Assembly (NCBI GenBank): GCA_043825275.1
Contig: JBDRSA010000004.1
Coordinates: 1 to 17,560, forward strand
Source: Candidatus Omnitrophota bacterium
GTDB lineage: Bacteria > Omnitrophota > Gorgyraeia > 2-01-FULL-45-10 > JBDRSA01
Direction of reading: 5' to 3'
DNA length: 17,560 nt
Shown here: one piece after another, positions 1,196 to 15,532 of the stretch
Layout of the letters: each line of letters starts with the position of its first letter
Numbering within the stretch: the stretch's first letter is position 1
Notes under the pieces: model-generated
What the model was told of the DNA's origin: nothing
Databases searched by the model: none
Seen by the model: the letters and a program-made list of their open reading frames with translations, nothing else
Made by a program: the position numbers and the translations under genes

Positions 1196-1213
1196 GCGCG
1201 CTTCGTGAAAATA

Positions 1214-1280: not shown

Positions 1281-1281
1281 G

Positions 1282-2712
1282 CTAGCTGGTCCAGACGGCG
1301 TAATCATACGCGGTATCGATGATCGGCTTAAAAGGGGCCCCGGGAGAGCCGACCGTCTCAAAGATAAGCGTAACTTCTTCTCCGGCATAACGCGAGAGAT
1401 CGACATCTCCCTGGAACCATCTTCTGTCGGACTTATTCTCTTTCGGATTGATATACCTCGAAAAGAGAATAACCGCGGGTGCGTCCGGGCCGACATCCTC
1501 AACAACCCTGAACTCAACACCGTCGCCCGGCTTATCCCACGCTTCTTCCAGGACGCCAAACCCAAAGACAATGTGAACGTTCTTGCTTTGTACGGGGAAC
1601 GTTACCCGGATCTTCGTCGGCGCCGGCGCGAAAACCGCGTATTTTTCCAGGCCTCCTATCCGCACATATTTTTTAAGGGAATCGACAGTATACCTTTTTT
1701 GTGCCGCCATCTCCCGCAGACGATCAATGGTGAACTTTTCTATAAAGAACGTGATCAGCGCATTTTTCTCCTGGATGGGATGAGACCGAAAATAATGAAA
1801 AGTACCGGCGGAAGACAGATAATATTCGGCAAACTCCTCTTTGACGAACAGTACGATCTTTTGAAGGAATAGATCCTGATTGATCTTGAAAATCATTAGT
1901 TTGCGCCGAAGCCGCTGCTTCAGATCCTCAGCCGTAGAGGCGTTCGCGAACATGATGATCAGATTATGCCACCCTTCTTCGACAGTTCCCCAGAAATGAT
2001 AGTCTTGTAGCTTATTGGGATCATATTTTCTGACCAGAGCTGACCCGAGCGTGTTGTCGTCTATCGCGAACTCCATCTTACAATTCGTATCGAGCATCGG
2101 GTCATCGGGTTTGGTTGAGTCATTCCGCGCGCATACGACAAACCGATGGAGGCCTTTATTTAAATGCACCGTCTTATGCATGGCCCCTTTGCTGGAAAGA
2201 CCTTTGAAGCCGTGCCGTTCTGCGCTTTTCACCGAAGAGCTTACCCCCATATCCGCTCCTTGAATAGCCAGGGTCGGGCCGCTTTGTATCAGAAAATAGC
2301 TGCCGAAGATCTCCCGACCTTCTGGAGCGCCAGATCTCACTACTTCTATCTCGCTATCTTCTACAGTCAGATACATCTCTTCGGTGAGCGGAACGCTCTT
2401 TGGCGAGAAAGACGCGATCGCATACCCCTCCAGATCCCATTTTTTGGCGGCGGGGTTCATCTTTATCAGGTCATCGCGCGTAATGCGTTCCCACTGCTCC
2501 ACTTTTTCCCGGGTCAACAAAGAACCTATCGCGTCAAAAAGCGTGGATTCAACCTTCACGTTCCTCACATTTTCCATCAGGGTGTAAGCATAAATATCTT
2601 CTTTCTTTTTTGCGGTAAGCAGAAAGAGAGTTACACCGAAAATAAGGATCATCAGGATCGACAACTTCAGTACGACACCGAATATCCTGTTGTATACTGA
2701 CGCGCTTGACAT
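1282..2712 (-). CDS. Membrane-anchored exported protein of unknown function (476 aa) with a beta-rich C-terminal domain
   Basis: Long ORF with an ATG start and AAGGAG 13 nt upstream. It has an N-terminal signal-anchor (IFGVVLKLSILMILIFGVTLFLLTA). The C-terminal segment ...GDGVEFRVVEDVG...RRWFQGDVDLSRYAGEEVTLIFETVGSPG...DYAVWTS resembles beta-sandwich tails I have seen on envelope-glycan proteins; this is recollection, not verified. The gene starts 17 nt after the Wzy_C-like gene, so the two look co-transcribed. Confidence 0.75.
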   Translation of the reverse strand: MSSASVYNRIFGVVLKLSILMILIFGVTLFLLTAKKKEDIYAYTLMENVRNVKVESTLFDAIGSLLTREKVEQWERITRDDLIKMNPAAKKWDLEGYAIASFSPKSVPLTEEMYLTVEDSEIEVVRSGAPEGREIFGSYFLIQSGPTLAIQGADMGVSSSVKSAERHGFKGLSSKGAMHKTVHLNKGLHRFVVCARNDSTKPDDPMLDTNCKMEFAIDDNTLGSALVRKYDPNKLQDYHFWGTVEEGWHNLIIMFANASTAEDLKQRLRRKLMIFKINQDLFLQKIVLFVKEEFAEYYLSSAGTFHYFRSHPIQEKNALITFFIEKFTIDRLREMAAQKRYTVDSLKKYVRIGGLEKYAVFAPAPTKIRVTFPVQSKNVHIVFGFGVLEEAWDKPGDGVEFRVVEDVGPDAPAVILFSRYINPKENKSDRRWFQGDVDLSRYAGEEVTLIFETVGSPGAPFKPIIDTAYDYAVWTS

Positions 2713-2729
2713 ATCTTTATCAAAACTCC

Positions 2730-3983
2730 TTACTTCCCTTCTTCCGCGCTCCTTTGTTCACAAGCAGTCGAGGCGACCCCTGCTCCGACCAGCACCCAGA
2801 AGAGTCCCGCGATCTCGCTCTGGCTCCAAAAATAGTCGACCAGTCCATGCCCCAGGAATCCTGCCAGTGAACAGAGGATCCCCAGCGTAATATATGTCTG
2901 TCCGAAACCATCTGACGCCCGTATGCCTTTATACAGCTTCCGCATAACAGCTCCGTACAACCACAAGAGCGCGAGCAGCCCGAAAAAACCGAGGTTGACC
3001 GTCGTTTCCAAAAAAATATTGTGCGTCCTGAAACGAGGAACGTTCTTCCAAAAGAACATATCCGCGCCCTGACCGCGAAAAGGGTACTCCTGAATAGATC
3101 GCAGAGCGCTCTTCGCATACTCGAGCCGGATCTTCTCCGTCGGCTCAAGGGTTCCTGTCGTGAACGAGCGAAAACCGAAAAGGTTAAATAAGAACGCTGA
3201 TACTATAATACCACAGAGCAAAAAGAAGAGGGCGATAATTTTCGGCTTTCTGTATTGTACCGCGAATATGGCCACGAAACAGGCAAAGGCGAAGAAGAGC
3301 CCTATGAGCCAGCCTTTCGTCCCCGAAAGAACCGCGCAAAAGATAAATAAAACAGTTAAAGATCCGTAGACGGCTCTCCGAAAAACGCTCGAATGAGGCC
3401 GGAAGATCCAAAAACACGCGGCGAGCGGAACAAGCGCGCCGAAAAATACGCTCATATTCGTCGGCCATCCAAACAGCCCGCAGATCCGGTGAGAACTGAC
3501 CTCGGCGCTTTCGAAGAATCGCCGGAGGCCATCTATCGCGTCATGACGAAAATACTGCGCGGCCACAAATACCGAGGCAATGCAGGCGCCGGCAAAAACA
3601 CAGGAGATCAGCCGCTCAAGCCGGCGTTCACTTGTTATAAAATTAATTATCGCGAAGGCGACGATGCCGAGGCCAAAGAACCGCGCCGTGTATTTCAACG
3701 ACCAGATCATCTTTTCTGACGGTATGACGCTTGAAAAAAGATGGATCCCTAAAAAAACGATGAAGGGATAAACGAGACCTCCCCCGTTCGGGACGTTCTC
3801 CCTGTTCGACAATATCGCGATCTCCCACAATATGATGAGAATGACGACCTCAAGCGCGAAAAAACTCTTTATCGCGGGAATCGTTAATCCGAGATTCTCC
3901 AGGGAAAAATCAAACGGAAGGAATAGAGCTATGCAGCAGCAGCAGTAAAAGACGGCGCGCCGAACGAACAAGGATAGTTTCAT
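2730..3983 (-). CDS. O-antigen ligase / O-antigen polymerase family (Wzy_C-like) polytopic membrane protein
   Basis: About 10-12 hydrophobic helices. The characteristic loop-plus-motif is RLEYAKSALRSIQEYPFRGQGADMFFW...RFRTHNIFLETTVNLGFFGLLALLWL, matching the R..W....P.G.G...F....HN..L....G..G pattern of PF04932. The track start at 3989 is TTG. I prefer the ATG two codons in (3983, MKLSLFV...). Confidence 0.8.
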   Translation of the reverse strand: MKLSLFVRRAVFYCCCCIALFLPFDFSLENLGLTIPAIKSFFALEVVILIILWEIAILSNRENVPNGGGLVYPFIVFLGIHLFSSVIPSEKMIWSLKYTARFFGLGIVAFAIINFITSERRLERLISCVFAGACIASVFVAAQYFRHDAIDGLRRFFESAEVSSHRICGLFGWPTNMSVFFGALVPLAACFWIFRPHSSVFRRAVYGSLTVLFIFCAVLSGTKGWLIGLFFAFACFVAIFAVQYRKPKIIALFFLLCGIIVSAFLFNLFGFRSFTTGTLEPTEKIRLEYAKSALRSIQEYPFRGQGADMFFWKNVPRFRTHNIFLETTVNLGFFGLLALLWLYGAVMRKLYKGIRASDGFGQTYITLGILCSLAGFLGHGLVDYFWSQSEIAGLFWVLVGAGVASTACEQRSAEEGK

Positions 3984-4124
3984 GGGCAATTATCGGGAAG
4001 AGCCGGCGCGGGAATACCGCCGATCGTTCTTCGAACCGCGGGACAATGGCCCCGTCCGCGAACATAGGGAACGGCCGGATGTCCGCCGGGAAGAAATCCG
4101 CGGTCTCGTTCTATGGCGAAGGCG

Positions 4125-5111
4125 TCACTTAACTTCTGACTGTACGCCATCAGAACTCACAAAGCAGATCCTGTTCCTTCCCGTCTCCTTCGCGTAGTAC
4201 AGGCACTCATCGGCTTTCGCGACCAACGACCTCGGGTCTTTCGAGTCATCCGGATAGGACGAGAGGCCGATGCTGATGGTAAGATGGGCGGTCGTGAGAG
4301 CTTTCTTATCGATGAATTTTGAATTCGCCACGAGCATCCGCAGGCGCTTCGCCACAATAATGGCCTTTGCCTTATCCGTCTCCGGCAGCAGCGTCACAAA
4401 CTCCTCACCGCCGTACCTGAAAACGTGGTCGGTGAACCGGACGCTTCCTGAAAGGATCTGCGCGACCTTTTTCAGGGCCCAATCACCCGCCTGGTGCCCC
4501 TGAGAATCATTAAAATTCTTGAAATGGTCGACATCGATCATCATGCACGAAAGAGGCTTCATGTATTTTGCCGCCCGCATCAGCTCATCGGGAAGCATCG
4601 CGTCAAAATGCCTCCGATTGTAGATCTCGGTCAACCCGTCAAGGATCGACAGCCGCTGATACTGCTCCTTCTCTTTCGCCTCCTTCAAGAGGAGCTGGCG
4701 CTCAACCGCCCTGCGCACGACGACCTTGATCTCCTCAATGTTGAACGGCTTTGAGATATAGTCGTACGCGCCCTCTTTCAGGACCTCCATAGCGGATTGT
4801 ATTGACGCGTAGCCGGTTATGACAATGACGCAGACATCCGCCTTCGCGCTTCTGAATTTTTTTGTGACCTCTACGCCGTCAATACCCGGCATTCTCATGT
4901 CCGTTATCACAATGCTGAAATCGCTGTTGTTGACGAGCCTCACCGCCTCTTCGCCGCTTGACGCCGTACACACCTGGTAGCCGGATTCGGTCAAGACATC
5001 CTTCAGCATGCTGCGCATAATGTCTTCATCGTCTACCACCAGAATGCTAACCGCGGCCATCGCGTTCGCGACGGCGTCTCTCGATCTCTTAACGTTCTCC
5101 CGCTCAGCCAT
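4125..5111 (-). CDS. Response regulator with GGDEF output (REC-GGDEF diguanylate cyclase, PleD/WspR-like)
   Basis: REC domain: ILVVDDEDIMRSML...FSIVITDMRMPGIDG...VIVITGYAS, giving the acidic pocket, phospho-acceptor Asp and conserved Lys region. GGDEF domain: LDGLTEIYNRRHFD...IDVDHFKNFNDSQGHQAGDWALK...RFTDHVFRYGGEEFVTLL...ADECLYYAKETGRNR. The active site GGEEF is intact and an RxxD I-site (RFTD) lies 5 residues upstream. SD AGAGGAG precedes the ATG. The gene starts 23 nt after the kinase gene. Confidence 0.95.
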   Translation of the reverse strand: MAERENVKRSRDAVANAMAAVSILVVDDEDIMRSMLKDVLTESGYQVCTASSGEEAVRLVNNSDFSIVITDMRMPGIDGVEVTKKFRSAKADVCVIVITGYASIQSAMEVLKEGAYDYISKPFNIEEIKVVVRRAVERQLLLKEAKEKEQYQRLSILDGLTEIYNRRHFDAMLPDELMRAAKYMKPLSCMMIDVDHFKNFNDSQGHQAGDWALKKVAQILSGSVRFTDHVFRYGGEEFVTLLPETDKAKAIIVAKRLRMLVANSKFIDKKALTTAHLTISIGLSSYPDDSKDPRSLVAKADECLYYAKETGRNRICFVSSDGVQSEVK

Positions 5112-5134
5112 GATTTTTTGCCGCTCCTCTTTTT

Positions 5135-6898
5135 TTATTTTTTAGGCTCTTTGGATTTCACTATCGGGAAGCTCAGTATAAAAGTGGTTCCTTTCCCCTC
5201 TTCACTCTCCGCGGCAACCGTCCCTCGGTGGGCCTGAACGATCGTATGGGTTATTGAAAGCCCGAGGCCTGTTCCGGATCTTCCTACCTTGCTCGTAAAA
5301 AAAGGATCGAAGATATTTGCCAGGTTCTCCTTCGAGATCCCGCTGCCGGAATCCGAAACACGGACCTCCACATACTCAAGCGGAGGCCTGTATCTCGTAT
5401 CGCTCTTGTTCAGAGCGGTCACCTTGATCACGCCGTTCTCGCCCATAGCGTCCTGAGCGTTCTGAATAAGATTCGTGAACACCTGCTGCAGCTGATTCGC
5501 GTTCCCGTTGATCTTCCTGAGGCCTTCCGGAGAGAACGCGGCCGATACTTTCATGTTCTTCTGTGAGAGCTGGAACTCCATCATGCTGACGGTATTCTCA
5601 ATAACGTCCTGGATATTTATCTCTTCCATCTCTTCGGACGATTTCCGCGAAAAATTCAGCAGGTTCGATATGATCCACTGACAGCGCTTCGATTCCTTCT
5701 CAACCATCTCAAGGTATCTGATCGACGTATCAATGACATCCTGTGAGGGGGTAGAGGATTTAAGCCTGGATAATATCAGCTGCACGTACCCGAGGATCCC
5801 GCCGATAGGATTGTTCAGCTCGTGGGCGACGCCGGCGCTGAGCTGGCCGAGCGAGGCCATTTTCGAGGATTGGACGACCTGGTTATACGTCTGCCGCAGT
5901 TCATCCATCTGATCCTTGGCCTTCCCACGGTCGACCTGTTTATATTCGATCAACCGGTCCTCTTTCACCCTAAGCTCATCGGTTACCCGGAGGTGCGCGG
6001 CCTTCAAGGCGATCAGGCCGGTTATACTCTGAATGAGGCGGATCGCCCCTTTCAACAGCATCTCATCTCTTTTCGCGGCCGCCCCGATGACGCCGAAGAA
6101 TGCCCCCCGGTACTCAATGGGCACCAGAATAACCCCCCGGGACCCCTGCTGAAAAAATATCTTTTCTACTTCTTCAAATTTCTTCCCCCCCAAAAGACTC
6201 TTCTTAAAAACGGCTTCCTTCAATCGTATCTCGCGTATCGACGTCCCCTCTTCGTCAAGAGGGATATCTCTTCTTTCGGCCAGGCCTTCGGGGAAGAGCG
6301 GGTAAATGGTCGCCTTCTTCTTATCGCCGCTTATCAGTAGAAGAGCCGCGGAGTCTATATATTGGATCGATCGAAGGCCGTTCCTGGCTGCCTCGAGCAG
6401 ATCGCTCGTCGTTACCCCTGACGAGAGGATCTCCTGGAATTTTTGAAGGAATGAATTGCTTTGGCTGAAACTGCCGAGCGAAGATATCATCTGAGAACAG
6501 GCATGATCGATGTAGGCGATCTCGCCTTTCTCTTCTTCTATATGGCCTTCGCCGCAATACCCTTTTACTTTCTTTACCAGAACGGTCATCGGAGACAGGA
6601 TCCTGTCAAACAACGGAAAAGTAATGAGACAGACCGCCCCCAGGCTTAAAACCGCTACGAGCGCGGAAGAAAATATTACGGTGGTAAACTCCTTGCTCGC
6701 GAAAATACTGACAAGCAGCCCCGCCTCAATAAACAGAACGACCAGAACCACTCCAATAACAAAGATTTTTATGATTTTATCTTTCAAGAACGGCCATCTT
6801 TCTTTTTTCTTGAGGCTTTTAATGAAATATAGCACCACTCTTTGTGCTTTGTCAAGTTTAAATTCCTCTGTCGAAATTCCTCTGTCGGTTATTGACAC
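5135..6898 (-). CDS. Membrane-bound sensor histidine kinase (2 TM, GAF-like domain, HisKA, HATPase_c)
   Basis: Two adjacent TM helices (IIKIFVIGVVLVVLFIEAGLLVSIF / VIFSSALVAVLSLGAVCLITFPLF) with almost no periplasmic loop. GAF-like core: ...IDSAALLLISGD...GVILVPIEYRGAFFGVIGAAAKR. H-box: SLGQLSAGVAHELNNPIGGILGYVQL. N-box: QVFTNLIQNAQDAM. G-boxes: VSDSGSGI and GTGLGLSI. The annotated start is GTG at 6898. The true start is uncertain because of the 14-bp tandem repeat at 6860-6887 (see findings). Confidence 0.9.
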   Translation of the reverse strand: MSITDRGISTEEFKLDKAQRVVLYFIKSLKKKERWPFLKDKIIKIFVIGVVLVVLFIEAGLLVSIFASKEFTTVIFSSALVAVLSLGAVCLITFPLFDRILSPMTVLVKKVKGYCGEGHIEEEKGEIAYIDHACSQMISSLGSFSQSNSFLQKFQEILSSGVTTSDLLEAARNGLRSIQYIDSAALLLISGDKKKATIYPLFPEGLAERRDIPLDEEGTSIREIRLKEAVFKKSLLGGKKFEEVEKIFFQQGSRGVILVPIEYRGAFFGVIGAAAKRDEMLLKGAIRLIQSITGLIALKAAHLRVTDELRVKEDRLIEYKQVDRGKAKDQMDELRQTYNQVVQSSKMASLGQLSAGVAHELNNPIGGILGYVQLILSRLKSSTPSQDVIDTSIRYLEMVEKESKRCQWIISNLLNFSRKSSEEMEEINIQDVIENTVSMMEFQLSQKNMKVSAAFSPEGLRKINGNANQLQQVFTNLIQNAQDAMGENGVIKVTALNKSDTRYRPPLEYVEVRVSDSGSGISKENLANIFDPFFTSKVGRSGTGLGLSITHTIVQAHRGTVAAESEEGKGTTFILSFPIVKSKEPKK

Positions 6899-6968
6899 TA
6901 AGGCGATTTAGTGCTATATTTAAATGTAAATTAGGCATTAATATTGTCGATGGAAAGATTTGGCTCTT
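6899..6968. promoter_or_regulatory. AT-rich divergent intergenic region between the kinase operon and the LysM/motor operon; presumed to hold promoters for both
   Basis: It is the only AT-rich gap between two divergent operons: ctaaggcgatttagtgctatatttaaatgtaaattaggcattaatattgtcgatggaaagatttggctctt. It contains several TATA-like hexamers (TATATT, TAATAT) and a TAAA-N15-GTCGAT motif. No confident sigma70 -35/-10 pair with 17-nt spacing could be assigned. Confidence 0.4.
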
Positions 6969-7673
6969 ATGCATACTTCACATAGTACCATCCGGCGGAG
7001 CGGGAAGATATTATTGACAACTCTCTTCGCTCTTCTCGCGCTCTTTTTTTCCGCTTCCGAATCCTCCGCCCGGGATCCGATGCGGTCAGGTTCCCGAGAG
7101 GCCGAGGCCTACGACGATGGCATCTTCCGGGAAAACAGAGGCTACCTTGTCAGTAACGAGAATATCCCCGAGGAGCGCTCAAAATCAACCCTCTTCAGAC
7201 GCGGAGCGTTCAATAGGACTGAGACGTCTCGTCAGCGAAAGAAGAGAGCTCCGATAACAAAAATATCGTACGGGCAAAAAAAATCCCGGGAGATCTCTAA
7301 ACCGTCTCAACAGGAGTCTTCGTACATTCGTACTCTTGAAGACGCTCTCCTGCAGGAACGAGAGCGCTCGCTGCGCCAAACGAAAGAGATCGAGACGCTC
7401 AGGAGTAAACTGGAACGGGCTCTCAGGCAGCTGTCGCTGGCGACCCAGAAGATAATGGACCTCAAACAGGAGCGCCCCGCGTCTTCAAAGAGAATTTCAC
7501 AGACCTACCAGGTCAAAGCGGGCGATTCTCTCTGGTCGATCGCCGCGATGAAAGAGATCTACGGCAATCCGAAGAAGTGGCTTCTTCTCTATCACGCCAA
7601 CAGGGATCAGATCTATGATCCGAACCTTATCTTCCCGAACATGGTACTCTTGATCCCGCGTCTCAACGATTAA
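6969..7673 (+). CDS. Exported coiled-coil protein with a C-terminal LysM peptidoglycan-binding domain
   Basis: Signal peptide: KILLTTLFALLALFFSASESSA. Heptad-like charged segment: RTLEDALLQERERSLRQTKEIETLRSKLERALRQLSLATQKIMDLKQE. C-terminal LysM: YQVKAGDSLWSIAAMKEIYGNPKKWLLLYHANRDQIYDPNLIFPNMVLLIPR. The track start at 6960 is TTG. I prefer ATG 6969, which has GGAAAG 11 nt upstream. The stop lies 10 nt before the next gene. Confidence 0.85.
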   Translation: MHTSHSTIRRSGKILLTTLFALLALFFSASESSARDPMRSGSREAEAYDDGIFRENRGYLVSNENIPEERSKSTLFRRGAFNRTETSRQRKKRAPITKISYGQKKSREISKPSQQESSYIRTLEDALLQERERSLRQTKEIETLRSKLERALRQLSLATQKIMDLKQERPASSKRISQTYQVKAGDSLWSIAAMKEIYGNPKKWLLLYHANRDQIYDPNLIFPNMVLLIPRLND

Positions 7674-7683
7674 GGAAATATCT

Positions 7684-9726
7684 GTGGGGACCGACAACTA
7701 CACTACGGTTGGACGCTTGAAAACAACGCGCAAACTGTTTTACAGTACTCTGCCGCTGAAGGCGGCCTTCTCTGTATTGGTATGTTCGCTGGCGATCCTG
7801 CCGCCTGCCGCGGCTGCTCAGAGACGGGCCGACGAAGCGATATTGGAAAGTGACATGGCGACCCGCCTCGAATCGATGGTAGAAAAAGTCGTCGGAAAGG
7901 AGCGCTCGATCGTAAAGGTAAAGGTCACCCTTTCGCGCCCCCAGGCTGAAGCTCCTCTCGGCAGCTTAAGAGGGAAGCTGGGCGACATGCCCGGTGTCGC
8001 GTTCTCGAAGGCGGAGCCCAAAAAAGAAGAGACGGTAAAACTCTCGGTCGGCCCCACGATCGAAAAGATCGCGATCACGATCTTTCTCGACAACAAGATC
8101 GCCTCCGATAAGATCGACAGCATAAAAGAATCCATTCCCCGGTGGATGGATCTCGATTTCGAACGCGGCGATACGCTGAAGATCGAGCTGAAGCCGTGGA
8201 AAGAGCTTCCGCCGGAAGATATCGCGATAAAACAGCTGTCGTTCCTGAAAGGAAATCTTTTGGCGATCGTCGCCATCGCCAGTATCGTCATCCTGGTCTT
8301 CGTCCTTATGGCCGTACTTGCCGTACCGGCCAGGAAAATGATCAAACAGCGGTTGAAGATGCCGTCCGACGAGAAAAAGCTCAAGGATCTCGCCAAGGTG
8401 ATGGGTGACCTGAAAAACGTTATCATTAAATCGACCGCCGGCGCGGCGAAGAACGTCGATACCCTTCTTGAGGATATCAAAGGGATCCTCGCGAGAGCCC
8501 CCTCGAGAAGCGACGGCCTGCTTGAAGAAATACGGGATGTGCTTGAAAATATCGCCACAAAATCGATGAAGGGGGGCGAGGGAGGCTCCGGCGGGGCCGG
8601 CGGCTCGGCCGGATCCGCCGCCGGTTTACAGGCGCCCGAGTTCCTCCAGGCACTCAGGGATACGCTCGCGCCGATGGGCGGCGACGGAGGGTTATCCCCC
8701 GAGGCGCTCCAGGTGCTCCAGAGCATCGAGGAGCACATCAAAAGACAGGTTGACGGCGTTGCCGCGGGCGACATTCTTGACGAGCCGTTCAAATATCTCA
8801 ACTCTATCTCGACCGGTGAGATCTCCCTGTATATCGACGGCGAGGAGCCGAGGATCGCCGCCATAATACTGGGACATATCGACCCGAACAAAGCGGCGGA
8901 AGTCGTAGCTGAGCTATCCGACGAAAGAAAGATAGAGGTTTCGGTCGCCATGGCAACCCTTGTCGAGACCGATAAAGTCGCCGCCGAAATAAAGGACTTT
9001 ATCCGCCGCAAAATGCCCGAAGTCAAGCTGAGAAGCGACTTTCAGCCTATTACGGGAAGCAAGGCGCTCGCGGAGCTTTTGAGCTCTTCAACGCTTGATA
9101 TTACGAATTATGTCCTCGACAATCTCCAGAAGAGTAACCCCTCGATCGCGGAAGCGGTAAAGAAGGAGATGTTCCTCTTTGAGGATATCGCGGGCCTGCA
9201 GAATGAAGGCGTCGCGGAGCTGTTAAAAAGCACCGACCGGCATCGTCTTAGTCTTGCCCTTCTGAAGGCGTCGGACGCGGTTAAGACCAAATTTTTTAAC
9301 AACATGACCGAGCGCGCCGTCGCGATGGTCAAGGAGGAGATGAGCGCCCTGCAGCCCGTATCCGATGAGGGTTTGAAAGACGAAATTCTGTTTTTTGAGG
9401 ATATCGTAAATCTCGGCCAGAAGAGATTTCAGCAGATCTTTTCGAATATCGACCGAAATATGATAAAGCTCGCGCTCAAAGGGTCGTCCGAAGAAGTCCG
9501 TACTAGGGTCTTCGCGGTCATGACCGAGCGCGGAGCGGCAATGCTGCGGGAAGATATCGAGGTTATGCCGAACATCGCGCGGGAACGCACGCTCGAGGCG
9601 CAAAAAGAGATACTGGATTACGTGCGTAAACTGGAGATGGAACCTATTGTCGCTCAACAGGAGATCATCGCCAAGGTCAGAGAGCTCGAACGCGCCGGAA
9701 GGCTCTCGCTCGGATCGCGGTCCTGA
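7684..9726 (+). CDS. 680-aa fusion protein: signal/TM, FliF/YscJ-like periplasmic module, TM, long flexible linker, FliG-like middle domain, and two tandem FliG C-terminal units
   Basis: GTG start with AAGGAAA 5 nt upstream. aa 25-45 hydrophobic (LKAAFSVLVCSLAILPPAAAA). aa 46-190 are periplasmic with ring-building-motif-like strings (ATRLESMVEKVVGKERSIVKVKVTL ... IEKIAITIFLDNKIASDKIDSIKESIPRWMDLDFERGDTLKIEL). TM at aa 191-214. Gly-rich tether: GGEGGSGGAGGSAGSAAG. FliG ARM_M-like: GEEPRIAAIILGHIDPNKAAEVVAELSDERKIEVSVAMATL. FliG_C unit 1: MFLFEDIAGL...LSLALLKASDAVKTKFFNNMTERAVAMVKEEM. Unit 2: ILFFEDIVNL...IKLALKGSSEEVRTRVFAVMTERGAAMLREDIEVMPNIARERTLEAQKEILDYVRKLE. Confidence 0.8.
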   Translation: MGTDNYTTVGRLKTTRKLFYSTLPLKAAFSVLVCSLAILPPAAAAQRRADEAILESDMATRLESMVEKVVGKERSIVKVKVTLSRPQAEAPLGSLRGKLGDMPGVAFSKAEPKKEETVKLSVGPTIEKIAITIFLDNKIASDKIDSIKESIPRWMDLDFERGDTLKIELKPWKELPPEDIAIKQLSFLKGNLLAIVAIASIVILVFVLMAVLAVPARKMIKQRLKMPSDEKKLKDLAKVMGDLKNVIIKSTAGAAKNVDTLLEDIKGILARAPSRSDGLLEEIRDVLENIATKSMKGGEGGSGGAGGSAGSAAGLQAPEFLQALRDTLAPMGGDGGLSPEALQVLQSIEEHIKRQVDGVAAGDILDEPFKYLNSISTGEISLYIDGEEPRIAAIILGHIDPNKAAEVVAELSDERKIEVSVAMATLVETDKVAAEIKDFIRRKMPEVKLRSDFQPITGSKALAELLSSSTLDITNYVLDNLQKSNPSIAEAVKKEMFLFEDIAGLQNEGVAELLKSTDRHRLSLALLKASDAVKTKFFNNMTERAVAMVKEEMSALQPVSDEGLKDEILFFEDIVNLGQKRFQQIFSNIDRNMIKLALKGSSEEVRTRVFAVMTERGAAMLREDIEVMPNIARERTLEAQKEILDYVRKLEMEPIVAQQEIIAKVRELERAGRLSLGSRS

Positions 9727-9785
9727 CCGCTCTCGATTCATTGATCTCAGTCATCAAAAGAAACCGGTGGAAGAAAGGATCAAGC

Positions 9786-9980
9786 ATGATCATCGTTACA
9801 AAGTTTGACGGCAAGGAACTGGTAGTGAACGCCGACCTTGTAAAGTTCGTCGAAGCGAAACCTGACACTATCATGACGCTCACCACCGGTGAAAGGATCA
9901 TCGTAAAAGAACCCCGCGATGAAGTTATCAGCCGGATCATTAAGTATAAGCAGTTGGTACATCAACCCCCCGTCCAATAG
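9786..9980 (+). CDS. flbD: FlbD (small flagellar stator-associated protein, PF06289-type)
   Basis: MIIVTKFDGKELVVNADLVKFVEAKPDTIMTLTTGERIIVKEPRDEVISRIIKYKQLV matches the FlbD consensus pattern (..lTrlnGkef.lNadlIe.ie..PDT.itLt.G.k..VkEs.eEV...i..yk). The track ORF begins at 9741, but ATG 9786 has the SD GGAAGAAAGGA and gives the canonical 64-aa size. Confidence 0.85.
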   Translation: MIIVTKFDGKELVVNADLVKFVEAKPDTIMTLTTGERIIVKEPRDEVISRIIKYKQLVHQPPVQ

Positions 9981-9995
9981 AACAGAGAGGCGACC

Positions 9996-10751
9996 ATGGC
10001 GATAACAACTATAACCGGGCTTCTCCTGGCGGCGTTCTTTCTTCTTTTCGGTATCGCGACACGCGGCGGTATGTCCCGGATCATGGTCTTCGTCGATCCG
10101 GGATCTCTTATGCTGGTTGTCGGCGCCAGTATTTCGGCGCTCATCACGAACTATACGTTTAAAGAGATATGGCTGGCCATGAAAGCTATCCGTTTCGCCT
10201 TTCTGCCGAAACCCCCGATGCCTGAAGCGGTTATCGATCTGATCGTGCGCATGGCCATCAAAGCGCGCAAAGAAGGGTTCATTTCACTGCGGGAAGAGTC
10301 ATCCGGCGAAAAATTTCACCTGGTCGACCTGGGTGTCGGCCTCATCGCCGACGGGACCGATCCCGAGGTGACCCGGGAGATCCTCGACGCCGCGAGCTTC
10401 ACCGAGGGCGGCATGCTCGCTTCAAACGAGCGTGTCTGGAGGGACCTGTCGGTTTATACTCCCATGTTCGGTATGGTCGGAACGCTGATCGGCCTTATCC
10501 TGATGCTGCGGGGTTTGTCCGACCCCGCGACCATCGGCCCGGCAATGGCCATGGCGCTCATAACAACGCTCTACGGCATCGTTATCGCGGGTGTGCTTTG
10601 TCTTCCGATCGCCGGAAAGATCAAAAATTATAACGATCGGGTAGCGGTCCTGAGAACGCTTATGATCGAGGGCCTCATCTCCATCCAGGCGGGTGACAAC
10701 TCCCAGATCGTTGAGGCGCGCCTCAAGGCTCATATCGCCAAAGAATCCTAA
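9996..10751 (+). CDS. motA: MotA/PomA-type flagellar stator channel subunit (251 aa, 4 TM)
   Basis: The four-TM layout has a large cytoplasmic loop between TM2 and TM3. That loop contains AIKARKEGFISLREE, the ARxxGxxxLE-type charged loop of MotA/PomA. TM3 is YTPMFGMVGTLIGLILML and TM4 is GPAMAMALITTLYGIVIAGVLCLPIAGKI, so both conserved prolines are present. The gene sits 15 nt after flbD and 7 nt before motB. Confidence 0.9.
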   Translation: MAITTITGLLLAAFFLLFGIATRGGMSRIMVFVDPGSLMLVVGASISALITNYTFKEIWLAMKAIRFAFLPKPPMPEAVIDLIVRMAIKARKEGFISLREESSGEKFHLVDLGVGLIADGTDPEVTREILDAASFTEGGMLASNERVWRDLSVYTPMFGMVGTLIGLILMLRGLSDPATIGPAMAMALITTLYGIVIAGVLCLPIAGKIKNYNDRVAVLRTLMIEGLISIQAGDNSQIVEARLKAHIAKES

Positions 10752-10758
10752 TAAAAGA

Positions 10759-11553
10759 ATGCCCGTTCACAGCCTCTATAAAAAAAAGAAAGCTTTCCCT
10801 TCGGTCTCCGGAGAAAGCGAGCTTGAAGACAGCTGGCCGCCTACCTGGTCCGTCAGCTTTGCCGACCTGACGACGCTGCTAATGTCGGGGTTCATCCTCT
10901 GGTACGCTCTTACCGCGATGAAGATCCCGCCGGAACTTCTCGCGATCAAAGAGATCGATCAGGTTATTCCCGCCGATATCAAGATCATGGAAAACTTCGA
11001 ACAGGCGGGCGCCGATCAATCAAGGATCATGCTCAAGATCAAGGCCCTCACCCCCAAACAGCGCAGGCTTGTCAGAGAGATGAAGGCCCTGAGGGAGCTC
11101 AAAGAGACGATCGAGCGCCAGATAACCCAGGCCGGCCTTGACGACAAAGTAGACGTTCGGGTAGAGATCGACGCGGTGCTCATAACGCCGCGTGAGCCTT
11201 TTCTCTTCGGGGAGGGGGACGCCCGGCTCAAACAGAGCTCGTTCGCGCTGCTTGACACAATTATCGAAACGATACGGTCACGGTCATACTACCGGATACG
11301 CGTCGAGGGCCATACCGACAGCGCGCCGATCGGCCCTTTCCGCAAGATCCTGTTCCCCACGAATTGGGAGCTTTCCTACAAACGGGCGATAACGGTAGCT
11401 CAATATCTTATTGCCGGAAATATATCGCCCGCGGCCATCGGGGTGACCGGATACAGCGATACAAAACCGAAGGTTGTGGGCGATGACCCGGAAAGCAGAG
11501 AGAAGAACAGAAGGGTCGACATTTATATTTATCTCAAGAAGGTCGAAAGGTAG
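10759..11553 (+). CDS. motB: MotB-type stator subunit, paralogue 1 (TM with conserved Asp, coiled-coil linker, OmpA-like peptidoglycan-binding domain)
   Basis: The start is trimmed to ATG 10759, because track start 10693 would overlap motA by 59 nt. N-terminus: SWPPTWSVSFADLTTLLMSGFILWYALTAM, with the channel Asp in FADL. C-terminus: YRIRVEGHTDSAPIG...FPTNWELSYKRAITVAQYL...GVTGYSDTKPKV...NRRVDIYI (OmpA_C-like). Confidence 0.9.
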   Translation: MPVHSLYKKKKAFPSVSGESELEDSWPPTWSVSFADLTTLLMSGFILWYALTAMKIPPELLAIKEIDQVIPADIKIMENFEQAGADQSRIMLKIKALTPKQRRLVREMKALRELKETIERQITQAGLDDKVDVRVEIDAVLITPREPFLFGEGDARLKQSSFALLDTIIETIRSRSYYRIRVEGHTDSAPIGPFRKILFPTNWELSYKRAITVAQYLIAGNISPAAIGVTGYSDTKPKVVGDDPESREKNRRVDIYIYLKKVER

Positions 11554-11565
11554 CGTCCTCAAGCC

Positions 11566-12318
11566 ATGATCGAATCAAGAATTCAACGGCGCGATCAAGC
11601 GACATCAACGCTTCAGGAGGTTTGGCCGCCGAAGTGGTTCTTTTCGTATTCGGACCTGTCGGTGCTCCTGATGACCTTCTTTATCATTCTCGCCACGATG
11701 CTTTCCCTGAAGATCCCGCTCTACGTGTTTGCCGACGCGAGATTAAAACCGCTCCTGGATGAACGGATGGTCGTCTTTGAAGAGATCAGGCGGCTCACGG
11801 AACTCGAGAAGATGATGATGGATGAATTTCAATCAATGCGGCCCGATCAGGTCAAGCGCCTCATCGCGCTCGAGAAGATGAATGAGTTGAAAAAAAGTAT
11901 CGATAAGTACATCAAGAAGATGCAGCTGGAAAATTTTATCAAGATCGAAGCCGGAAAGTGGAAGCTCCGGCTGGTGCCCTTGTCTCCCTTGCTGTTCGGC
12001 CGCGGCGACGCCGTTCTGCGTCAGGAAGCGAAAGATTTTCTCGATCAGATAGCGGAATTCGCCGCAATGTACCCGTCGCGCCTTTCGATCGAGGGGCACA
12101 CGGACGACACCCCTATCAACACCCGTCAATTCTCCTCAAACTGGGAACTTTCCGCGGCCCGCGCGAACAGCATTATGCGCTATCTGGCCACCGAACACAA
12201 GATCCCCTCTGATAAGATCGACGCGGTCGGATACGGGGAATACCGGCCGCTCGTCCCCAACGACTCGGATACAAACCGCGCCTCCAACCGCCGGGTCGTT
12301 ATCGAACTGCTTATTTGA
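11566..12318 (+). CDS. motB: MotB-type stator subunit, paralogue 2
   Basis: N-terminus: VWPPKWFFSYSDLSVLLMTFFIILATM, with the Asp retained. C-terminus: RLSIEGHTDDTPINTRQFSSNWELSAARANSIMRYL...AVGYGEYRPLVPN...NRRVVIELL. It has the same architecture as paralogue 1, including an alignable coiled-coil linker, and starts 12 nt after it. Confidence 0.9.
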   Translation: MIESRIQRRDQATSTLQEVWPPKWFFSYSDLSVLLMTFFIILATMLSLKIPLYVFADARLKPLLDERMVVFEEIRRLTELEKMMMDEFQSMRPDQVKRLIALEKMNELKKSIDKYIKKMQLENFIKIEAGKWKLRLVPLSPLLFGRGDAVLRQEAKDFLDQIAEFAAMYPSRLSIEGHTDDTPINTRQFSSNWELSAARANSIMRYLATEHKIPSDKIDAVGYGEYRPLVPNDSDTNRASNRRVVIELLI

Positions 12319-12387
12319 ACAGTCGTAGAGCTTTTACATGCCACGACTGTTCATCCTGAGCGAAGCGAACGATCTCATTCCATAACT

Positions 12388-12410
12388 TCCTCTCCCCGGA
12401 GGGGAGAGGA
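12388..12410. repeat. GC-rich perfect hairpin (10-bp stem, 3-nt loop) in the convergent intergenic region; possibly a bidirectional terminator or a REP-like element
   Basis: tcctctcccc-gga-ggggagagga. It is flanked by tcatcctgagcgaagcgaacgatctc upstream and ttgaggtgagggg downstream. There is no U-tract on either strand, so it is not a canonical intrinsic terminator. Confidence 0.4.
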
Positions 12411-12467
12411 TTGAGGTGAGGGGTACCCTTGAATGCTTGTACATTGCTACCGGCTTCGGTATCCCGG

Positions 12468-12761
12468 TCAAAACTTCATCTGGGATCTCACCCTCGTAGG
12501 ACTGCCGTCTTCTGACGAGTGATACTTTATCTGAGGATTCATCCAATACCTAAGATAGCGGGTAATAGTCTTTCCTCCGACAATATACCCGCAAAGAGCC
12601 GCCATTATCACAATAAAAACCTTGAGCAGTATCGTGGCTCTAAATCGGCTCTTCCTTGCTATCTTCTCTTTTATCTTTATTTTAATACGGTTTTGCGAAC
12701 GGCCAAACGTATTCCCGCCCGGAGCTTTTTCCGTATTCTCATCATGTCTGAAATTATCCAT
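12468..12761 (-). CDS. Possible small single-pass membrane protein (97 aa), hypothetical
   Basis: Track ORF 12468..12872 trimmed to the internal ATG at 12761. The product is MDNFRHDENTEK...RIKIKIKEKIARKSRFRATILLKVFIVIMAALCGYIVGGKTITRYL..., i.e. a basic N-terminus followed by one TM. It is co-directional with, and 76 nt downstream of, the three-gene cluster. There is no recognisable family and the region is AT-richer than the neighbouring genes, so it may be non-coding. Confidence 0.3.
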   Translation of the reverse strand: MDNFRHDENTEKAPGGNTFGRSQNRIKIKIKEKIARKSRFRATILLKVFIVIMAALCGYIVGGKTITRYLRYWMNPQIKYHSSEDGSPTRVRSQMKF

Positions 12762-12837
12762 GTACTTTTCCGTTATCTTTTGCCATGAACGATCTTTGTT
12801 CCCGTCAATTATCCGGCTTCCGCTGTATCTCCGGCCT

Positions 12838-14316
12838 CTACTCAACGGTAAAAGTACCGACCACCCAGTCACCGTATTTTTCGTAGTTTACATACGGCTG
12901 TTTGAACGTATCGCTTGGATAAGTCGGCTGGTCGATTTGATAAACCCCGTCCTTTCCTCTGTAGTATCTTACATAGCTTGCTCCCTCCTGAGTCTTTTGT
13001 TCAATAAAAAGACCTGCTTCAATATCATAAATGCCGGGGGGCGTATCATCAGGTATGTACACTCGCTTCGGCCCCTGGGTAATAATCTCACCAACCTTCC
13101 ATTCCGTCGCTTGAGGAATCAGTGAAGAATCGGCATTAATATAGCCGGCCTTATCGTTCTGTCGATAAATATGCATGAATAACGCGTAATTTTTCTTAAA
13201 CTTTCTTGATATTGAAAAAGATAACTCTATATCGATCGTTCCACCGGGTCGTACACTGTTTTGAGAAAGTTTTGTCCCTTCGAAAGTAACAAAAGGGCCC
13301 GTCTCATTGCCCAGATTGAAAGAGACAAGCCAAACATCATCGAGATATATTGTCGCCTGAGCGCCGCCGCGATAAAAATTAAAATCGTCTATATCGCCAA
13401 GGTCGATCTTCTCGCCGACAGCCGATAAATTAATAACATACGGCTTATCTTTCTCCGTTGTACCGGGTATTCCAACCGTAAATCTTCGTCCCGTTCTGTC
13501 TTTGATCTGCAAGGTAAGGGGAGTATTTGAATACGTGTGGCCATCCTTCTCCGGTCCATAGACGTAAAAACGCAATTCATCATAGAGTAACCAATCGTGG
13601 TATTTCGGATTACTATATCTAAAAAAATTGTTGAGTCGAACCGTAGGCATGCCGCCTTCGTTGAATGTTATTTTGGCCGCCTGCTTCCCTTGAGCAACAT
13701 TCTCTTTTTCCTGCTCAATAACGGCGCCGGATAGCTCCCATTTCCTTACATCGACCAGATCTTCAAAATCACTTATTACAAGATCTTCGATCTTCTTTTC
13801 CTCATTCTCATCTGCCGGCTCGACCACACGCAACGTCCCGACAATAAAATCTTTTATATCCGCGTTGGTATACGGCTCCCTGATATAGATCGGTCCCGCA
13901 GATGTCTGTTTCGTCGAATAGAGCCCCATCCTTACACCATACTCTCCCGCCGGTATGTCAGAAGGAATAAAAACATTGACCGGACCTACGGAAACCGCGT
14001 CACCAACTACCCACATCGTTGTAGGCGTCGCGGGCGAAAAATCATTATTGATAACGATCGCGTGCGTCTTGAGATCTACAATATGCAGATAAAACCCGTA
14101 ATCTTCCCAAATATTCTTGGTGATCGAAAAATCAGCGTTCAAGAAGAAGATCTCCCCTTTTTGGACCTTATCGGGAATATCGAGCGTCCCTAAAGTTATG
14201 ATCGCCTTTCCTTCCCGGACAATAGATTTCGCTTGAACGGTAAAAGAAAAGATGGTGCCAATTAAAAGAATAGGTATAGATACCCGCCGAATATGATAAA
14301 ACAGCATCTTTTTCAT
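12838..14316 (-). CDS. Secreted modular protein (492 aa): module A, CBM-like module B, module A
   Basis: ATG start with AGGAGA 9 nt upstream. Signal peptide: MKKMLFYHIRRVSIPILLIGTIFSFTVQA. N-terminal module A: ...FYLHIVD...INNDFSPATPTTMWVVGDAVSVGPVNVFIPSDIPAGEYGVRMGLY...VGTLRVVE. Central module B: ISDFEDLVDVRKWELSGAVIEQ...DWLLYDELRFYVY...LQIKDRTGRRF...IYLDDVWLV. C-terminal module A: ...LFMHIYR...INADSSLIPQATEWKVGEIITQGPKRVYIPDDTPPGIYDIEAGLF...VGTFTVE. Confidence 0.85.
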   Translation of the reverse strand: MKKMLFYHIRRVSIPILLIGTIFSFTVQAKSIVREGKAIITLGTLDIPDKVQKGEIFFLNADFSITKNIWEDYGFYLHIVDLKTHAIVINNDFSPATPTTMWVVGDAVSVGPVNVFIPSDIPAGEYGVRMGLYSTKQTSAGPIYIREPYTNADIKDFIVGTLRVVEPADENEEKKIEDLVISDFEDLVDVRKWELSGAVIEQEKENVAQGKQAAKITFNEGGMPTVRLNNFFRYSNPKYHDWLLYDELRFYVYGPEKDGHTYSNTPLTLQIKDRTGRRFTVGIPGTTEKDKPYVINLSAVGEKIDLGDIDDFNFYRGGAQATIYLDDVWLVSFNLGNETGPFVTFEGTKLSQNSVRPGGTIDIELSFSISRKFKKNYALFMHIYRQNDKAGYINADSSLIPQATEWKVGEIITQGPKRVYIPDDTPPGIYDIEAGLFIEQKTQEGASYVRYYRGKDGVYQIDQPTYPSDTFKQPYVNYEKYGDWVVGTFTVE

Positions 14317-14407
14317 TGTTATCTTTCTCCTTTTTTAAAATACTAAAAATACATATATCAGACAGAGGGTCTATCTTTTTGTCAGCCAGTTTTCGACGCA
14401 AATGGCT

Positions 14408-15499
14408 TTACTTCACTACTTCAATATATCCGACTATATGATCTTTAAAAGCTTGGCTTGCGTACCGCAAGCGGGGATAGCCGGTACGAAAATCAAAGGC
14501 TCCACTGTTGAGCGCGCCTCTTGAATACGATCCTCTTGATCGGGGATTAAATAGCCCGATCTGCACCGCATAGGCGCCCGGTTGAAAATCTTTCGGAATA
14601 AAGATCCTTTCCGGGCCAATTTCATATATGCCGCTTTCGGCCCACTGAGAAGTAGGGACTAATGGATCTCTGTCCGCGTTGATAAACCATCGCCGTTTTG
14701 ATGACTTTTTTTTCAATTCATTTGATTTTGAAATATGAATAAACGCTTTATACTTTTTGTCCAGCGCTTTTAAGGCCACCATACTGCAGGAAAGTAAAAT
14801 TTCCGTGCCGCGTCGAACAGTATCCGGAGCGCGCAACGAAACAAAGTCTACCATAGGATCTTCCAGGATATCTCTCTTTGCAAGATCTTCCCTATCAAGC
14901 CTTACATTGTCCAAATAAAACTCGCGATCTTCGTTTTGGGGACCGGTAAAGAGTTTAAGATAGACGATATTCGTTAGATCAACTGTATCAGCAATATCTT
15001 TGAGATCGATCCGAATATTATTTTTCCCACTTTGCATCTTTATTTTCTGCTGCGCATATCGGCCGGCTTTATCCTTTATTTTTATGTCAAGGAGTACAGG
15101 GGCATCCTGCGGGTTCCATAGCTCAAACCGTAAAGATTTAAAACGAGACCAATCTTTTTCCCCGCGAGGACCTATATTAGTGTCTTCAAGCCCTACTCCT
15201 GGAGTAGCGCTCCCTCCATGTTCTTTACTGTATAGAGTTACATGGGCGGAGTGTTTTCCAGATGACGCGTACCGGGAAGAAAGCTCAACAAAGCTTCCGT
15301 CAAGATCCCACGCCCAAAAATCCTTCGACCCCTCAAAATCACTAAGAACTTTTTCGTGAGGCGTATAAAAATAATTGACTGCCGGTTTTGTATAATTAAT
15401 AAACGTGTTAATAACTCCCGTTCTTTTTATGGAAAACCCGATCAATAAGAGCCATCCGAGGATAACACTAAATATAACTAAAAAATAATTTTTTTTCAA
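14408..15499 (-). CDS. Membrane-anchored/exported modular protein (363 aa): CBM-like module B, then module A
   Basis: TTG start; there is no in-frame ATG before the N-terminal TM (YFLVIFSVILGWLLLIGFSI). Module B: LSDFEGSKDFWAWDLDGSFVELSSRYASSGKHSAHVTL...DWSRFKSLRFELWNP...IKIKDKAGRY...FYLDNVRL. Module A: ...AFIHISK...INADRDPLVPTSQWAESGIYEIGPERIFIPKDFQPGAYAVQIGLF...VGYIEVVK. Confidence 0.85.
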   Translation of the reverse strand: MKKNYFLVIFSVILGWLLLIGFSIKRTGVINTFINYTKPAVNYFYTPHEKVLSDFEGSKDFWAWDLDGSFVELSSRYASSGKHSAHVTLYSKEHGGSATPGVGLEDTNIGPRGEKDWSRFKSLRFELWNPQDAPVLLDIKIKDKAGRYAQQKIKMQSGKNNIRIDLKDIADTVDLTNIVYLKLFTGPQNEDREFYLDNVRLDREDLAKRDILEDPMVDFVSLRAPDTVRRGTEILLSCSMVALKALDKKYKAFIHISKSNELKKKSSKRRWFINADRDPLVPTSQWAESGIYEIGPERIFIPKDFQPGAYAVQIGLFNPRSRGSYSRGALNSGAFDFRTGYPRLRYASQAFKDHIVGYIEVVK

Positions 15500-15532
15500 A
15501 ATATAGCCTGCCGTTCGAATGCCGAGAAATAT

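Follow-up and report, generated by a model that had tools for sequence, protein, structure and literature searches.

How many contacts can a single rotor subunit offer to a MotAB stator, and can such a subunit exist apart from a flagellum? To our knowledge, FliG is the only track pushed by the MotAB stator, and its C-terminal helix bundle is normally present once per subunit. Both questions are raised by a 17,560-nucleotide (nt) stretch of DNA from a Candidatus Omnitrophota bacterium (GenBank assembly GCA_043825275.1, contig JBDRSA010000004.1, positions 1 to 17,560 of the forward strand; hereafter, the window), which encodes a FliG-like protein that we call FliGx. A preliminary description, made from the sequence alone, had placed a tandem duplication of the FliG C-terminal unit at positions 9160–9633, inside the rotor protein. 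Our analysis shows that the C-terminus of FliGx carries two FliG C helix-bundle units, one nested inside the other. A torque domain inside a torque domain would be a natural test of how many stator contacts are usable per rotor subunit and of the rigidity of the torque helix. The apparent setting, a stripped-down, covalent FliF-FliG rotor with its own stator and no rod, hook, export gate, or switch nearby, would bear on two further questions, namely whether rotor–stator pairs occur outside flagella and what form a minimal or ancestral rotary core may take.

The doubled C-terminal unit

Two segments of FliGx, copy 1 (amino acids (aa) 493–559; nt 9160–9360) and copy 2 (aa 565–636; nt 9376–9591), align residue for residue and without gaps at an offset of 72 aa, with 24/71 identities (34%) and a BLASTP E-value of 1e-14. 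Scanning the whole protein against itself, this offset gives 25 identities per 67-aa window, compared with 14 for the best other offset. The Pfam FliG_C model (PF01706) matches FliGx in two stretches (E = 3e-43), and chance resemblance is ruled out by the E-value between the copies and the independent matches of both to this model. The repeat stands as first described, and both copies match the FliG C helix bundle, although 9633 is a slightly generous end.

The preliminary description also held that the repeat is still visible in the DNA, as a 13-mer, TTTGAGGATATCG, present at 9178–9190 and 9394–9406 with a spacing of 216 nt. Both occurrences are there, but they are not the trace of a recent event: the copies are 51% identical in DNA and 30% identical at third codon positions, which rules out a recent tandem DNA duplication and makes the duplication an old one. 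The 13-mer is a by-product of a conserved FEDI peptide for which both copies use similar codons; a close variant of it is found at 8463–8478, in the linker peptide LLEDIK.

The layout of the two copies was resolved with a hidden Markov model (HMM) built from 97 canonical FliG C units, each taken from the fourth residue ahead of MFxF through the C-terminus (105 positions). The first unit, here termed the host (helices 1–5), has an MFLF hinge at 9169–9180 and a torque-type helix, MTERAVAMVKEEM (TER...KEE), at 9304–9342. The second unit, or insert, is nearly complete, with ILFF at 9385–9396, the torque-type helix MTERGAAMLREDI (TER...RED) at 9520–9558, and its own short helix 6 (6a) at 9577–9645. 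It is followed by another helix-6-like segment (helix 6b, aa 655–676), overlooked earlier, that completes the host unit in register (Table 1). The insert (aa 565–654) sits between the part of the host ending with helix 5 (aa 492–564) and host helix 6 (aa 655–680). Upon removal of the insert in silico, the host matches HMM positions 1–95 without a gap, at 80.2 bits versus 58.6 bits for copy 1 alone, and also matches residues 1–91 of Thermotoga maritima FliG_C (1qc7) without a gap (E = 9e-16). The excised insert (90 aa) matches 1qc7 residues 3–84 (E = 1.6e-13, 53.8 bits).

If helices 1–5 are called A and helix 6 is called B, the parts run A-A-B-B, an order that one tandem duplication could not have generated. 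This order, and the gapless unit left after removal of the insert, exclude a single tandem duplication, and the tandem arrangement first proposed gives way to a nested one. The simplest reading of the sequence is that a nearly complete unit was inserted in the helix 5–helix 6 loop of the host unit. Alternatively, the same sequence could have arisen through tandem duplication of A and, separately, of B.

An AlphaFold2 (AF2) model of aa 478–680 (predicted local distance difference test score (pLDDT) 80.2; predicted template modeling score (pTM) 0.69) comprises two groups of five helices, separated by a disordered linker of 10 residues, and a final long helix in which 6a and 6b are continuous; the full-length model, unlike this one, interrupts helix 6a–6b near Pro654. 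One unit superposes in Foldseek on 1qc7_B and on 8ucs_H, i.e., FliG_C bound to MotAB, with template modeling (TM) scores of 0.76–0.79 and root-mean-square deviations of 1.8–2.2 Å. We infer that helix 6b would pack onto the host unit. The preliminary description had allowed that copy 1 might correspond to the ARM_M/helix-MC region of FliG. This is ruled out, as FliG_M lies upstream (aa 380–447) and it is the C domain of T. maritima FliG to which copy 1 aligns.

Conservation and relatives of the nested unit

Conservation was analyzed in a family set of 21 distinct sequences, 30–70% identical to the window FliGx, comprising 12 full-length homologues and proteins translated from 10 further loci. 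The A-A-B-B layout is found in 21/21 sequences, from ~13 metagenome-assembled genomes (MAGs) of Omnitrophota, Auribacterota, and the Planctomycetes–Verrucomicrobia–Chlamydiae (PVC) group, and the second helix-6-like segment is kept in all family members. The duplication is shown to be ancient and fixed in a small family. A profile search across 1.84 billion cluster representatives retrieved 9,662 FliG-like proteins, only about a dozen of them members of the FliGx family.

Each of the two units has a torque-type helix that keeps the R...(E/D)(E/D) pattern, as the preliminary description had proposed; the residues are R544, E551, and E552 in the host and R616, E623, and D624 in the insert. The two helices are unequally conserved. 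In the insert, the R, E, and D residues are each present in 21/21 sequences, with a mean pairwise identity of 0.74; in the host, the basic residue is R or K in 17/21 (T, Q, or A in the other four), E is kept in 20/21, and D/E in 21/21, with a mean pairwise identity of 0.50. On these alignments, the torque helix of the insert is more constrained than that of the host. Helix 6b has a conservation of 0.57. The MFLF hinge of the host is invariant in the family alignment (A1), and the hinge of the insert reads ILFF, IVFF, or similar in the subclade of the window. A neighbor-joining tree of the units places all insert units in one group, beside the single units of a sister clade described below, with the host units on longer branches.

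Double units could have been common in ordinary flagellar FliG, a caveat already raised in the preliminary description, and they are not. We surveyed 279 proteins with the unit HMM, a set biased toward proteins that score highly with a double-unit profile; one C unit is present in 252, and only eight outside the family have two or three (P0149, P0151, P0152, P0156, P0188, P0189, P0237, and P0275). Likewise, 118 of the best 120 listed homologues of the C-terminal half are standard FliG (FliG_N present, mostly ~335 aa), with alignments covering ~61% of the query. Doubled C units are thus rare in ordinary FliG, and the nested form was seen only in the FliGx family among the proteins examined. The other multi-FliG_C proteins resemble FliGx in having two or three FliG C units per chain, but these are plain tandem repeats of complete units (A-B-A-B), with no transmembrane segment detected and with other partner domains. 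For instance, P0149 (996 aa) is a fusion of FliM, six DUF4116 repeats, FliG_M, and two FliG_C.

The closest comparison is the sister clade (P0137, P0138, P0139, and P0141). Its members share with FliGx the signal or transmembrane segment, the ring-building-motif (RBM)-like domain, the transmembrane helix, the Gly/Ala linker, FliG_M, and FliG_C, and the loci seen for this clade share the module of FlbD, MotA, two MotB, the unknown proteins, and GH123; in contrast, they have one complete C unit. Because this single-unit clade has the same module, the doubling of the C unit was a later change within an existing module. A pairing of the two FliG_C units with the two MotB paralogues is ruled out, as the sister clade has one unit and yet two MotB.

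The membrane-anchored half and the stator module

The NCBI model of FliGx uses a TTG start at codon 12 and gives a 669-aa protein (P0001) annotated as ‘FliG C-terminal domain-containing protein’ in a Candidatus Omnitrophota MAG. The order of parts is a signal or transmembrane segment, one periplasmic domain similar to RBM3 of FliF, a transmembrane helix, a Gly/Ala-rich linker, FliG_M, and the nested double C unit (Table 1).

Table 1. Features of the fliGx gene, its product, and the adjacent module in the window (coordinates in nt; residue numbers refer to the 680-aa reading frame).
Feature	Position	Strand	Evidence or remarks
FliGx	7684..9726	+	680-aa open reading frame, membrane-anchored; FliF RBM3-like domain fused to FliG M + C
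N-terminal hydrophobic segment, signal peptide or transmembrane helix 1 (aa 23–45)	7750..7818	+	hydropathy scan
Periplasmic ring-building-motif-like domain	7840..8190	+	AF2 secondary structure, Foldseek, family profile
Transmembrane helix 2 (aa 192–214)	8257..8325	+	hydropathy scan (strong), AF2
Cytoplasmic linker, ~150 aa, Gly/Ala-rich, mostly predicted disordered	8329..8778	+	pLDDT <50 over most of the P0001 model equivalent to aa 215–364
FliG middle domain (ARM_M), then helix-MC/ARM_C region	8779..9156	+	Pfam FliG_M aa 380–447; alignment to 1lkv
Host C unit, helices 1–5 (copy 1)	9157..9375	+	HMM positions 1–69 at aa 492–560, E = 3.7e-20, 58.6 bits alone
Inserted, nearly complete C unit, helices 1–6 (copy 2)	9376..9645	+	HMM positions 2–90 at aa 565–653, E = 3.2e-26
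Second helix-6-like segment, IVAQQEIIAKVRELERAGRLSL	9646..9723	+	HMM positions 76–95 at aa 657–676; in-register completion of the host unit
LysM protein: signal or transmembrane segment, coiled coil, C-terminal LysM peptidoglycan-binding domain	6960..7673	+	Pfam LysM
FlbD, 64 aa	9786..9980	+	Pfam PF06289, E = 1e-23; conserved in all loci
MotA/PomA-type stator subunit	9996..10751	+	Pfam MotA_ExbB
MotB paralogue 1 (MotB1): plug, transmembrane Asp (codon 10864), OmpA-like domain	10693..11553	+	orthologue in all loci
MotB paralogue 2 (MotB2): plug, transmembrane Asp (codon 11653), OmpA-like domain	11566..12318	+	31% identical to MotB1
Two secreted or anchored proteins, 492 and 363 aa	12838–14316 and 14408–15499	-	always adjacent to the module

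The periplasmic domain has the order alpha-beta-(disordered loop)-beta-alpha-beta in the AF2 secondary structure and is missing the beta-collar insert of FliF RBM3. Searching Foldseek with the full-length model, ~15 FliF RBM3/S-ring chains rank below the FliG matches (probability 1.0, E = 5e-3 to 8e-2, TM score 0.4–0.5). A profile of the N-terminal part of the family finds FliF structures as top matches in the PDB (6scn, E = 0.017; 9yh6, E = 0.035). The Pfam YscJ_FliF_C model gives a weak match to the window protein (E = 0.16) and scores above threshold in three relatives of the same architecture (P0158, P0166, and P0211). Similarly, natural full-length FliF-FliG fusions align with the family profile from the RBM3-like domain onward. 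The N-terminal half of FliGx is best described as one RBM3-like domain without the beta-collar, joined through a transmembrane helix and a linker to the FliG part. The linker contains two conserved amphipathic helix motifs, LLEDIKgIL and LLEEIRDVL, at 8463–8478 and 8517–8532 (aa ~261–285). Linker residues L251, I254, L258, D266, and L269 are invariant in alignment A1, and the sister clade shares both motifs, which may serve as a docking site or derive from the FliG-binding helices at the FliF C-terminus.

The FliG part begins with FliG_M (PF14841; E = 3e-13, 50.1 bits versus a cut-off of 25), and the T. maritima FliG structures align to FliGx separately, 1lkv at aa 367–567 and 1qc7 at aa 570–652. 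The position of the EHPQR (or EHPQ) motif, the FliM-binding motif of FliG, reads EEPR in the window FliGx when aligned to 1lkv, and only its E is invariant across the family. The Pfam FliG_N model reaches 22.1 bits, under its cut-off of 25, and this match is a cross-match that falls on the FliG_M region; the residues before aa 366 are transmembrane segments, the periplasmic domain, and disordered linker, and FliG_N is absent. With the NCBIfam FliG equivalog TIGR00207, FliGx scores 170.7 bits, below the cut-off of 226.7. In the full-length AF2 model, built from 13 sequences (mean pLDDT 64.6), FliG_M, ARM_C, and both C units have a pLDDT of 70–87, with a disordered inter-unit linker. The rotor protein of the preliminary description thus has the M and C domains of FliG, but it is not a canonical flagellar FliG, being membrane-anchored, without FliG_N, and below the equivalog cut-off.

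All loci with sufficient flanking sequence encode FliGx in a module that runs in the order LysM protein, FliGx, FlbD, MotA, MotB1, and MotB2 and is accompanied by two unknown secreted proteins; in these loci, the LysM gene is directly upstream of FliGx. FlbD-MotA-MotB is a typical flagellar operon arrangement. No other flagellar gene was found within ~10 kb in the window or in loci L001–L018. Probes for FliF RBM1-2, FliM, and FliG_N had no match in the window or in 19 loci, except for a weak match in L019 to the FliF-like domain of a protein with tetratricopeptide repeats (TPR), discussed below with its clade. FliGx family member P0012 belongs to Ca. Erginobacter occultus (Auribacterota), from a MAG that is 95% complete, and the paper describing it reports that none of the Ace Lake Auribacterota MAGs, this one included, encode flagella (PMC9324843).

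The MotA of the window is closest to PomA and Aquifex MotA among PDB entries (E = 2e-39). The equivalent of E. coli MotA R90 (PomA R88) is invariant in 17/17 family sequences, and the equivalent of PomA K89 is also kept. Both MotB paralogues retain the transmembrane Asp, and the stator looks functional, judging from this residue and the invariant Arg of MotA. MotA and both MotB proteins are below the NCBIfam equivalog cut-offs. One MotA is accompanied by two MotB paralogues whose orthology is kept in all loci, and the sister clade likewise has two MotB, which suggests either a MotB heterodimer or two stator types built with one MotA. The longest open reading frame of MotB1, with a GTG start, overlaps the end of MotA by 59 nt (10693–10751); an internal Met (MPVHSLYKK) just past the MotA stop codon is more likely to be its start. 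The Zorya anti-phage system (ZorAB) was rejected as an identification: with PADLOC models, MotA has no ZorA match, the MotB proteins match ZorB models through generic MotB/OmpA similarity, and the window has no other Zorya genes.

The module is surrounded by genes for polysaccharide metabolism, including exosortase EpsH/EpsI, GT2 and GT4 glycosyltransferases, Wzy, Wzz, Bac_transf, polysaccharide deacetylases, and GH123. The pair of secreted proteins, which have no match in Pfam or NCBIfam, stands upstream or downstream of the FliGx-MotAB part and is also found in the sister clade (L017). A repeated domain of ~120 aa is common to both secreted proteins and to the N-terminus of the adjacent GH123 protein (15533–17542, minus strand). 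The consistent tie to exopolysaccharide (EPS) loci suggests a use of MotAB-type motors that, if true, has not previously been described. Diverging upstream, on the minus strand (4125–6898), are a histidine kinase (HK) and a REC-GGDEF diguanylate cyclase, a pair conserved in L002, from the closest subclade only. This pair is ruled out as part of the core module, since it occurs only in the subclade of the window and is absent from the loci of the distant subclade and the sister clade; it makes a link to cyclic di-GMP (c-di-GMP) possible in the window lineage only.

A candidate rotor and its alternatives

What could such a protein do? The reading that we favor, with modest confidence, is that FliGx is a flagellum-independent, rotor-like protein with two MotA-facing helices per subunit, provided by the nested double C unit, in a non-flagellar module. 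FliGx would be a reduced, covalently fused FliF-FliG rotor subunit, built of an RBM3-like ring-building domain, a transmembrane helix, a flexible linker, ARM_M and ARM_C for ring polymerization, and two torque-helix units. RBM and ARM_M–ARM_C contacts would assemble it into a small rotor resembling an MS/C-ring; for comparison, the FliF RBM3 ring has about 33–34 subunits. In the fused protein, FliG_N would no longer be needed, and FliM binding has probably been lost, given the lack of conservation of EHPQR. With FlbD, MotA, and two MotB, which are presumably transcribed along with it, FliGx would form an ion-driven rotor–stator module of the inner membrane without a flagellum, anchored to peptidoglycan by the OmpA-like domains of MotB and by the LysM protein. 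MotA5B2 units, possibly containing a MotB1–MotB2 heterodimer, would push on the torque helices, giving two MotA-facing charged helices per subunit, fixed relative to each other by the contiguous helix 6a–6b. MotA probably makes its main contact with the insert, while the host may provide support or a second, more variable contact. The preliminary description had foreseen that two such helices would change the stoichiometry or geometry between rotor and stator; for the stoichiometry, we infer that they may, with the two helices being unequally constrained. The module might serve in EPS production or processing or in a related envelope process.

A bolder version of this reading, which we put forward only tentatively, is that Omnitrophota and Auribacterota possess a free-standing, flagellum-independent rotary motor of the inner membrane. 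This would be a minimal MotAB-driven MS/C-ring whose rotation would serve EPS export, surface movement, or envelope remodeling, and in which the nested domain would allow either two MotA per subunit or continuous engagement in a small ring without FliM/FliN.

Several observations weigh against the favored reading. The FliF-like assignment of the window FliGx is weak by sequence (Pfam E = 0.16; PDB profile E = 0.017), and the formation of a ring by a single RBM-like domain is assumed from the precedent of FliF, SctJ, and SpoIIIAG. The loss of the basic residue from the host torque helix in 4/21 sequences means that this helix may not bind MotA. The preliminary description had both copies keep the MFxF motif, which is true of the window subclade, but in the distant subclade the hinge of the insert is lost (ELPFNEA in copy 2). 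The packing of helix 6b onto the host is argued from sequence register, pLDDT, and pTM alone. The unit phylogeny has bootstraps of 31–56%, with monophyly of copy 2 in 56%, and is weakly supported. The published statement on flagella covers one family-bearing MAG and not the window's own genome. Lastly, the position of MotA E98 (PomA E96) is R or K in 17/17 family sequences, altering the canonical charge pairing, and the residue after it is variably acidic across the same sequences. In both torque helices of FliGx, the residue immediately preceding the conserved Arg is acidic (TER), in place of the K or Q of the canonical consensus. The basic MotA position (aa 88–100, ~nt 10257–10295) and the acidic residue of TER may represent a compensatory charge swap at the rotor–stator interface.

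The unequal conservation of the two units lends itself to another explanation, in which only the insert binds MotA and the host unit, helices 1–5 with 6b, is a pedestal or spacer that holds the insert further from the membrane or from ARM_C, replacing the support of FliM/FliN. This is a serious possibility, if not the one we expect: the insert keeps its R, E, and D without exception and groups with the single unit of the sister clade, the host torque helix is less conserved and on longer branches, its Arg having changed to T, Q, or A in four sequences, and the EHPQR motif is not conserved, with no FliM/FliN gene nearby. However, a mere spacer fits poorly with a host whose MFLF hinge is invariant and whose E-(D/E) pair is present in 20–21/21 sequences, and with a helix 6b that is as conserved as the insert (0.57); the tree on which the grouping depends is itself weakly supported. 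It is rather unlikely, in our view, that nothing rotates at all and that FliGx is a membrane-anchored, FliG-like docking or regulatory partner that gates or senses ion flow through MotAB and so controls EPS synthesis or c-di-GMP signaling, like stator-dependent surface sensing. Torque would be poorly transmitted through a long disordered linker, the module invariably lies within EPS loci, and an HK and a response-regulator diguanylate cyclase diverge upstream in the window and L002; yet this pair lies outside the core of the module, being absent from the more distant loci, and a protein that still has ARM_M, ARM_C, and an RBM-type periplasmic domain is more in line with ring assembly than with a monomeric sensor.

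The idea that FliGx simply serves an ordinary flagellum as a second, divergent FliG with a stator set of its own can draw on the flagellar-type FlbD-MotA-MotB arrangement and on clearly recognizable FliG_M and FliG_C domains. Some Omnitrophota and Auribacterota relatives are flagellated, e.g., Ca. Auribacter fodinae, but the Erginobacter MAG is reported without flagella (PMC9324843). We regard this idea as very unlikely for a protein that has two transmembrane segments and a periplasmic domain, lacks FliG_N, scores below the FliG equivalog cut-off, and, in the loci examined, has no other flagellar gene as a neighbor within ~10 kb. That the repeat is a chance resemblance or an assembly artifact has a negligible probability. 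The short exact 13-mer, and nothing else, points that way, against an E-value of 1e-14 between the copies and independent FliG_C matches for both; copies that are 51% identical in DNA are not a collapsed or duplicated assembly, and the arrangement recurs in >13 independent MAGs and metagenome contigs.

What sets FliGx apart from known systems is the domain-in-domain torque module and the flagellum-free setting; the individual parts are familiar. With flagellar FliG (1lkv, 1qc7, and 8ucs), FliGx shares ARM_M, ARM_C, the MFxF hinge, a six-helix bundle with the R...(E/D)(E/D) torque helix, and the MotA/MotB stator and FlbD as neighbors. Unlike flagellar FliG, it lacks FliG_N and EHPQR, is covalently joined to a membrane-spanning, FliF-like part, has two C bundles, one of them nested, and has no FliM, FliN, FliF, or export-gate genes near it. 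The closest described precedent for the fusion is the FliF-FliG(M) protein of Chlamydiaceae, a short fusion of ~330 aa with a reduced FliF (fewer RBMs, two transmembrane segments) and only an M-like region of FliG (Bergeron 2016, PeerJ, PMC4768692). Like FliGx, it is a natural fusion of a reduced FliF, on the cytoplasmic side, to a FliG-derived domain, and it comes from a non-flagellated lineage of the PVC group (PMC4768692). In the same study, neither FliG_C nor a torque helix is reported for the chlamydial protein, and FliF, FliL, and FlhA are the only flagellar genes listed as retained by Chlamydia, with no stator named (PMC4768692). FliGx differs in its single RBM3-like domain, its FliG_M with a doubled FliG_C, and its dedicated FlbD, MotA, and two MotB. 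Full-length FliF-FliG fusions, both natural (P0261, 869 aa; P0268, 920 aa) and engineered (Salmonella and Vibrio, PDB 8z4d), are likewise one polypeptide, but in these, FliF is complete (RBM1-3) and FliG_C is present once. P0261 and P0268 align with the family profile from the C-terminal periplasmic part through FliG_C, and the engineered fusion is among the PDB matches.

A full-text literature search, in which not all journals were covered, found no description of the FliGx family, a nested FliG_C, or a FliG-MotAB module in EPS loci, and no publication on the sister clade or on the TPR clade. The latter (P0158, P0166, P0211, and others) shares the membrane-anchored FliF_C-FliG_MC layout of FliGx, with its signal or transmembrane segment, RBM-like domain, transmembrane helix, and Gly/Ala linker, but has a single C unit plus C-terminal TPR repeats. 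P0166 (L019, 10001–12019), for instance, has a Pfam-significant FliF_C domain, a transmembrane helix, FliG_M, one FliG_C, and TPR repeats. Its locus, the sole one seen for the TPR clade, has no MotAB; nearby are PorV, Por_Secre_tail, and CHU_C genes, of the type IX secretion system (T9SS) type, and a Roadblock/LC7 gene.

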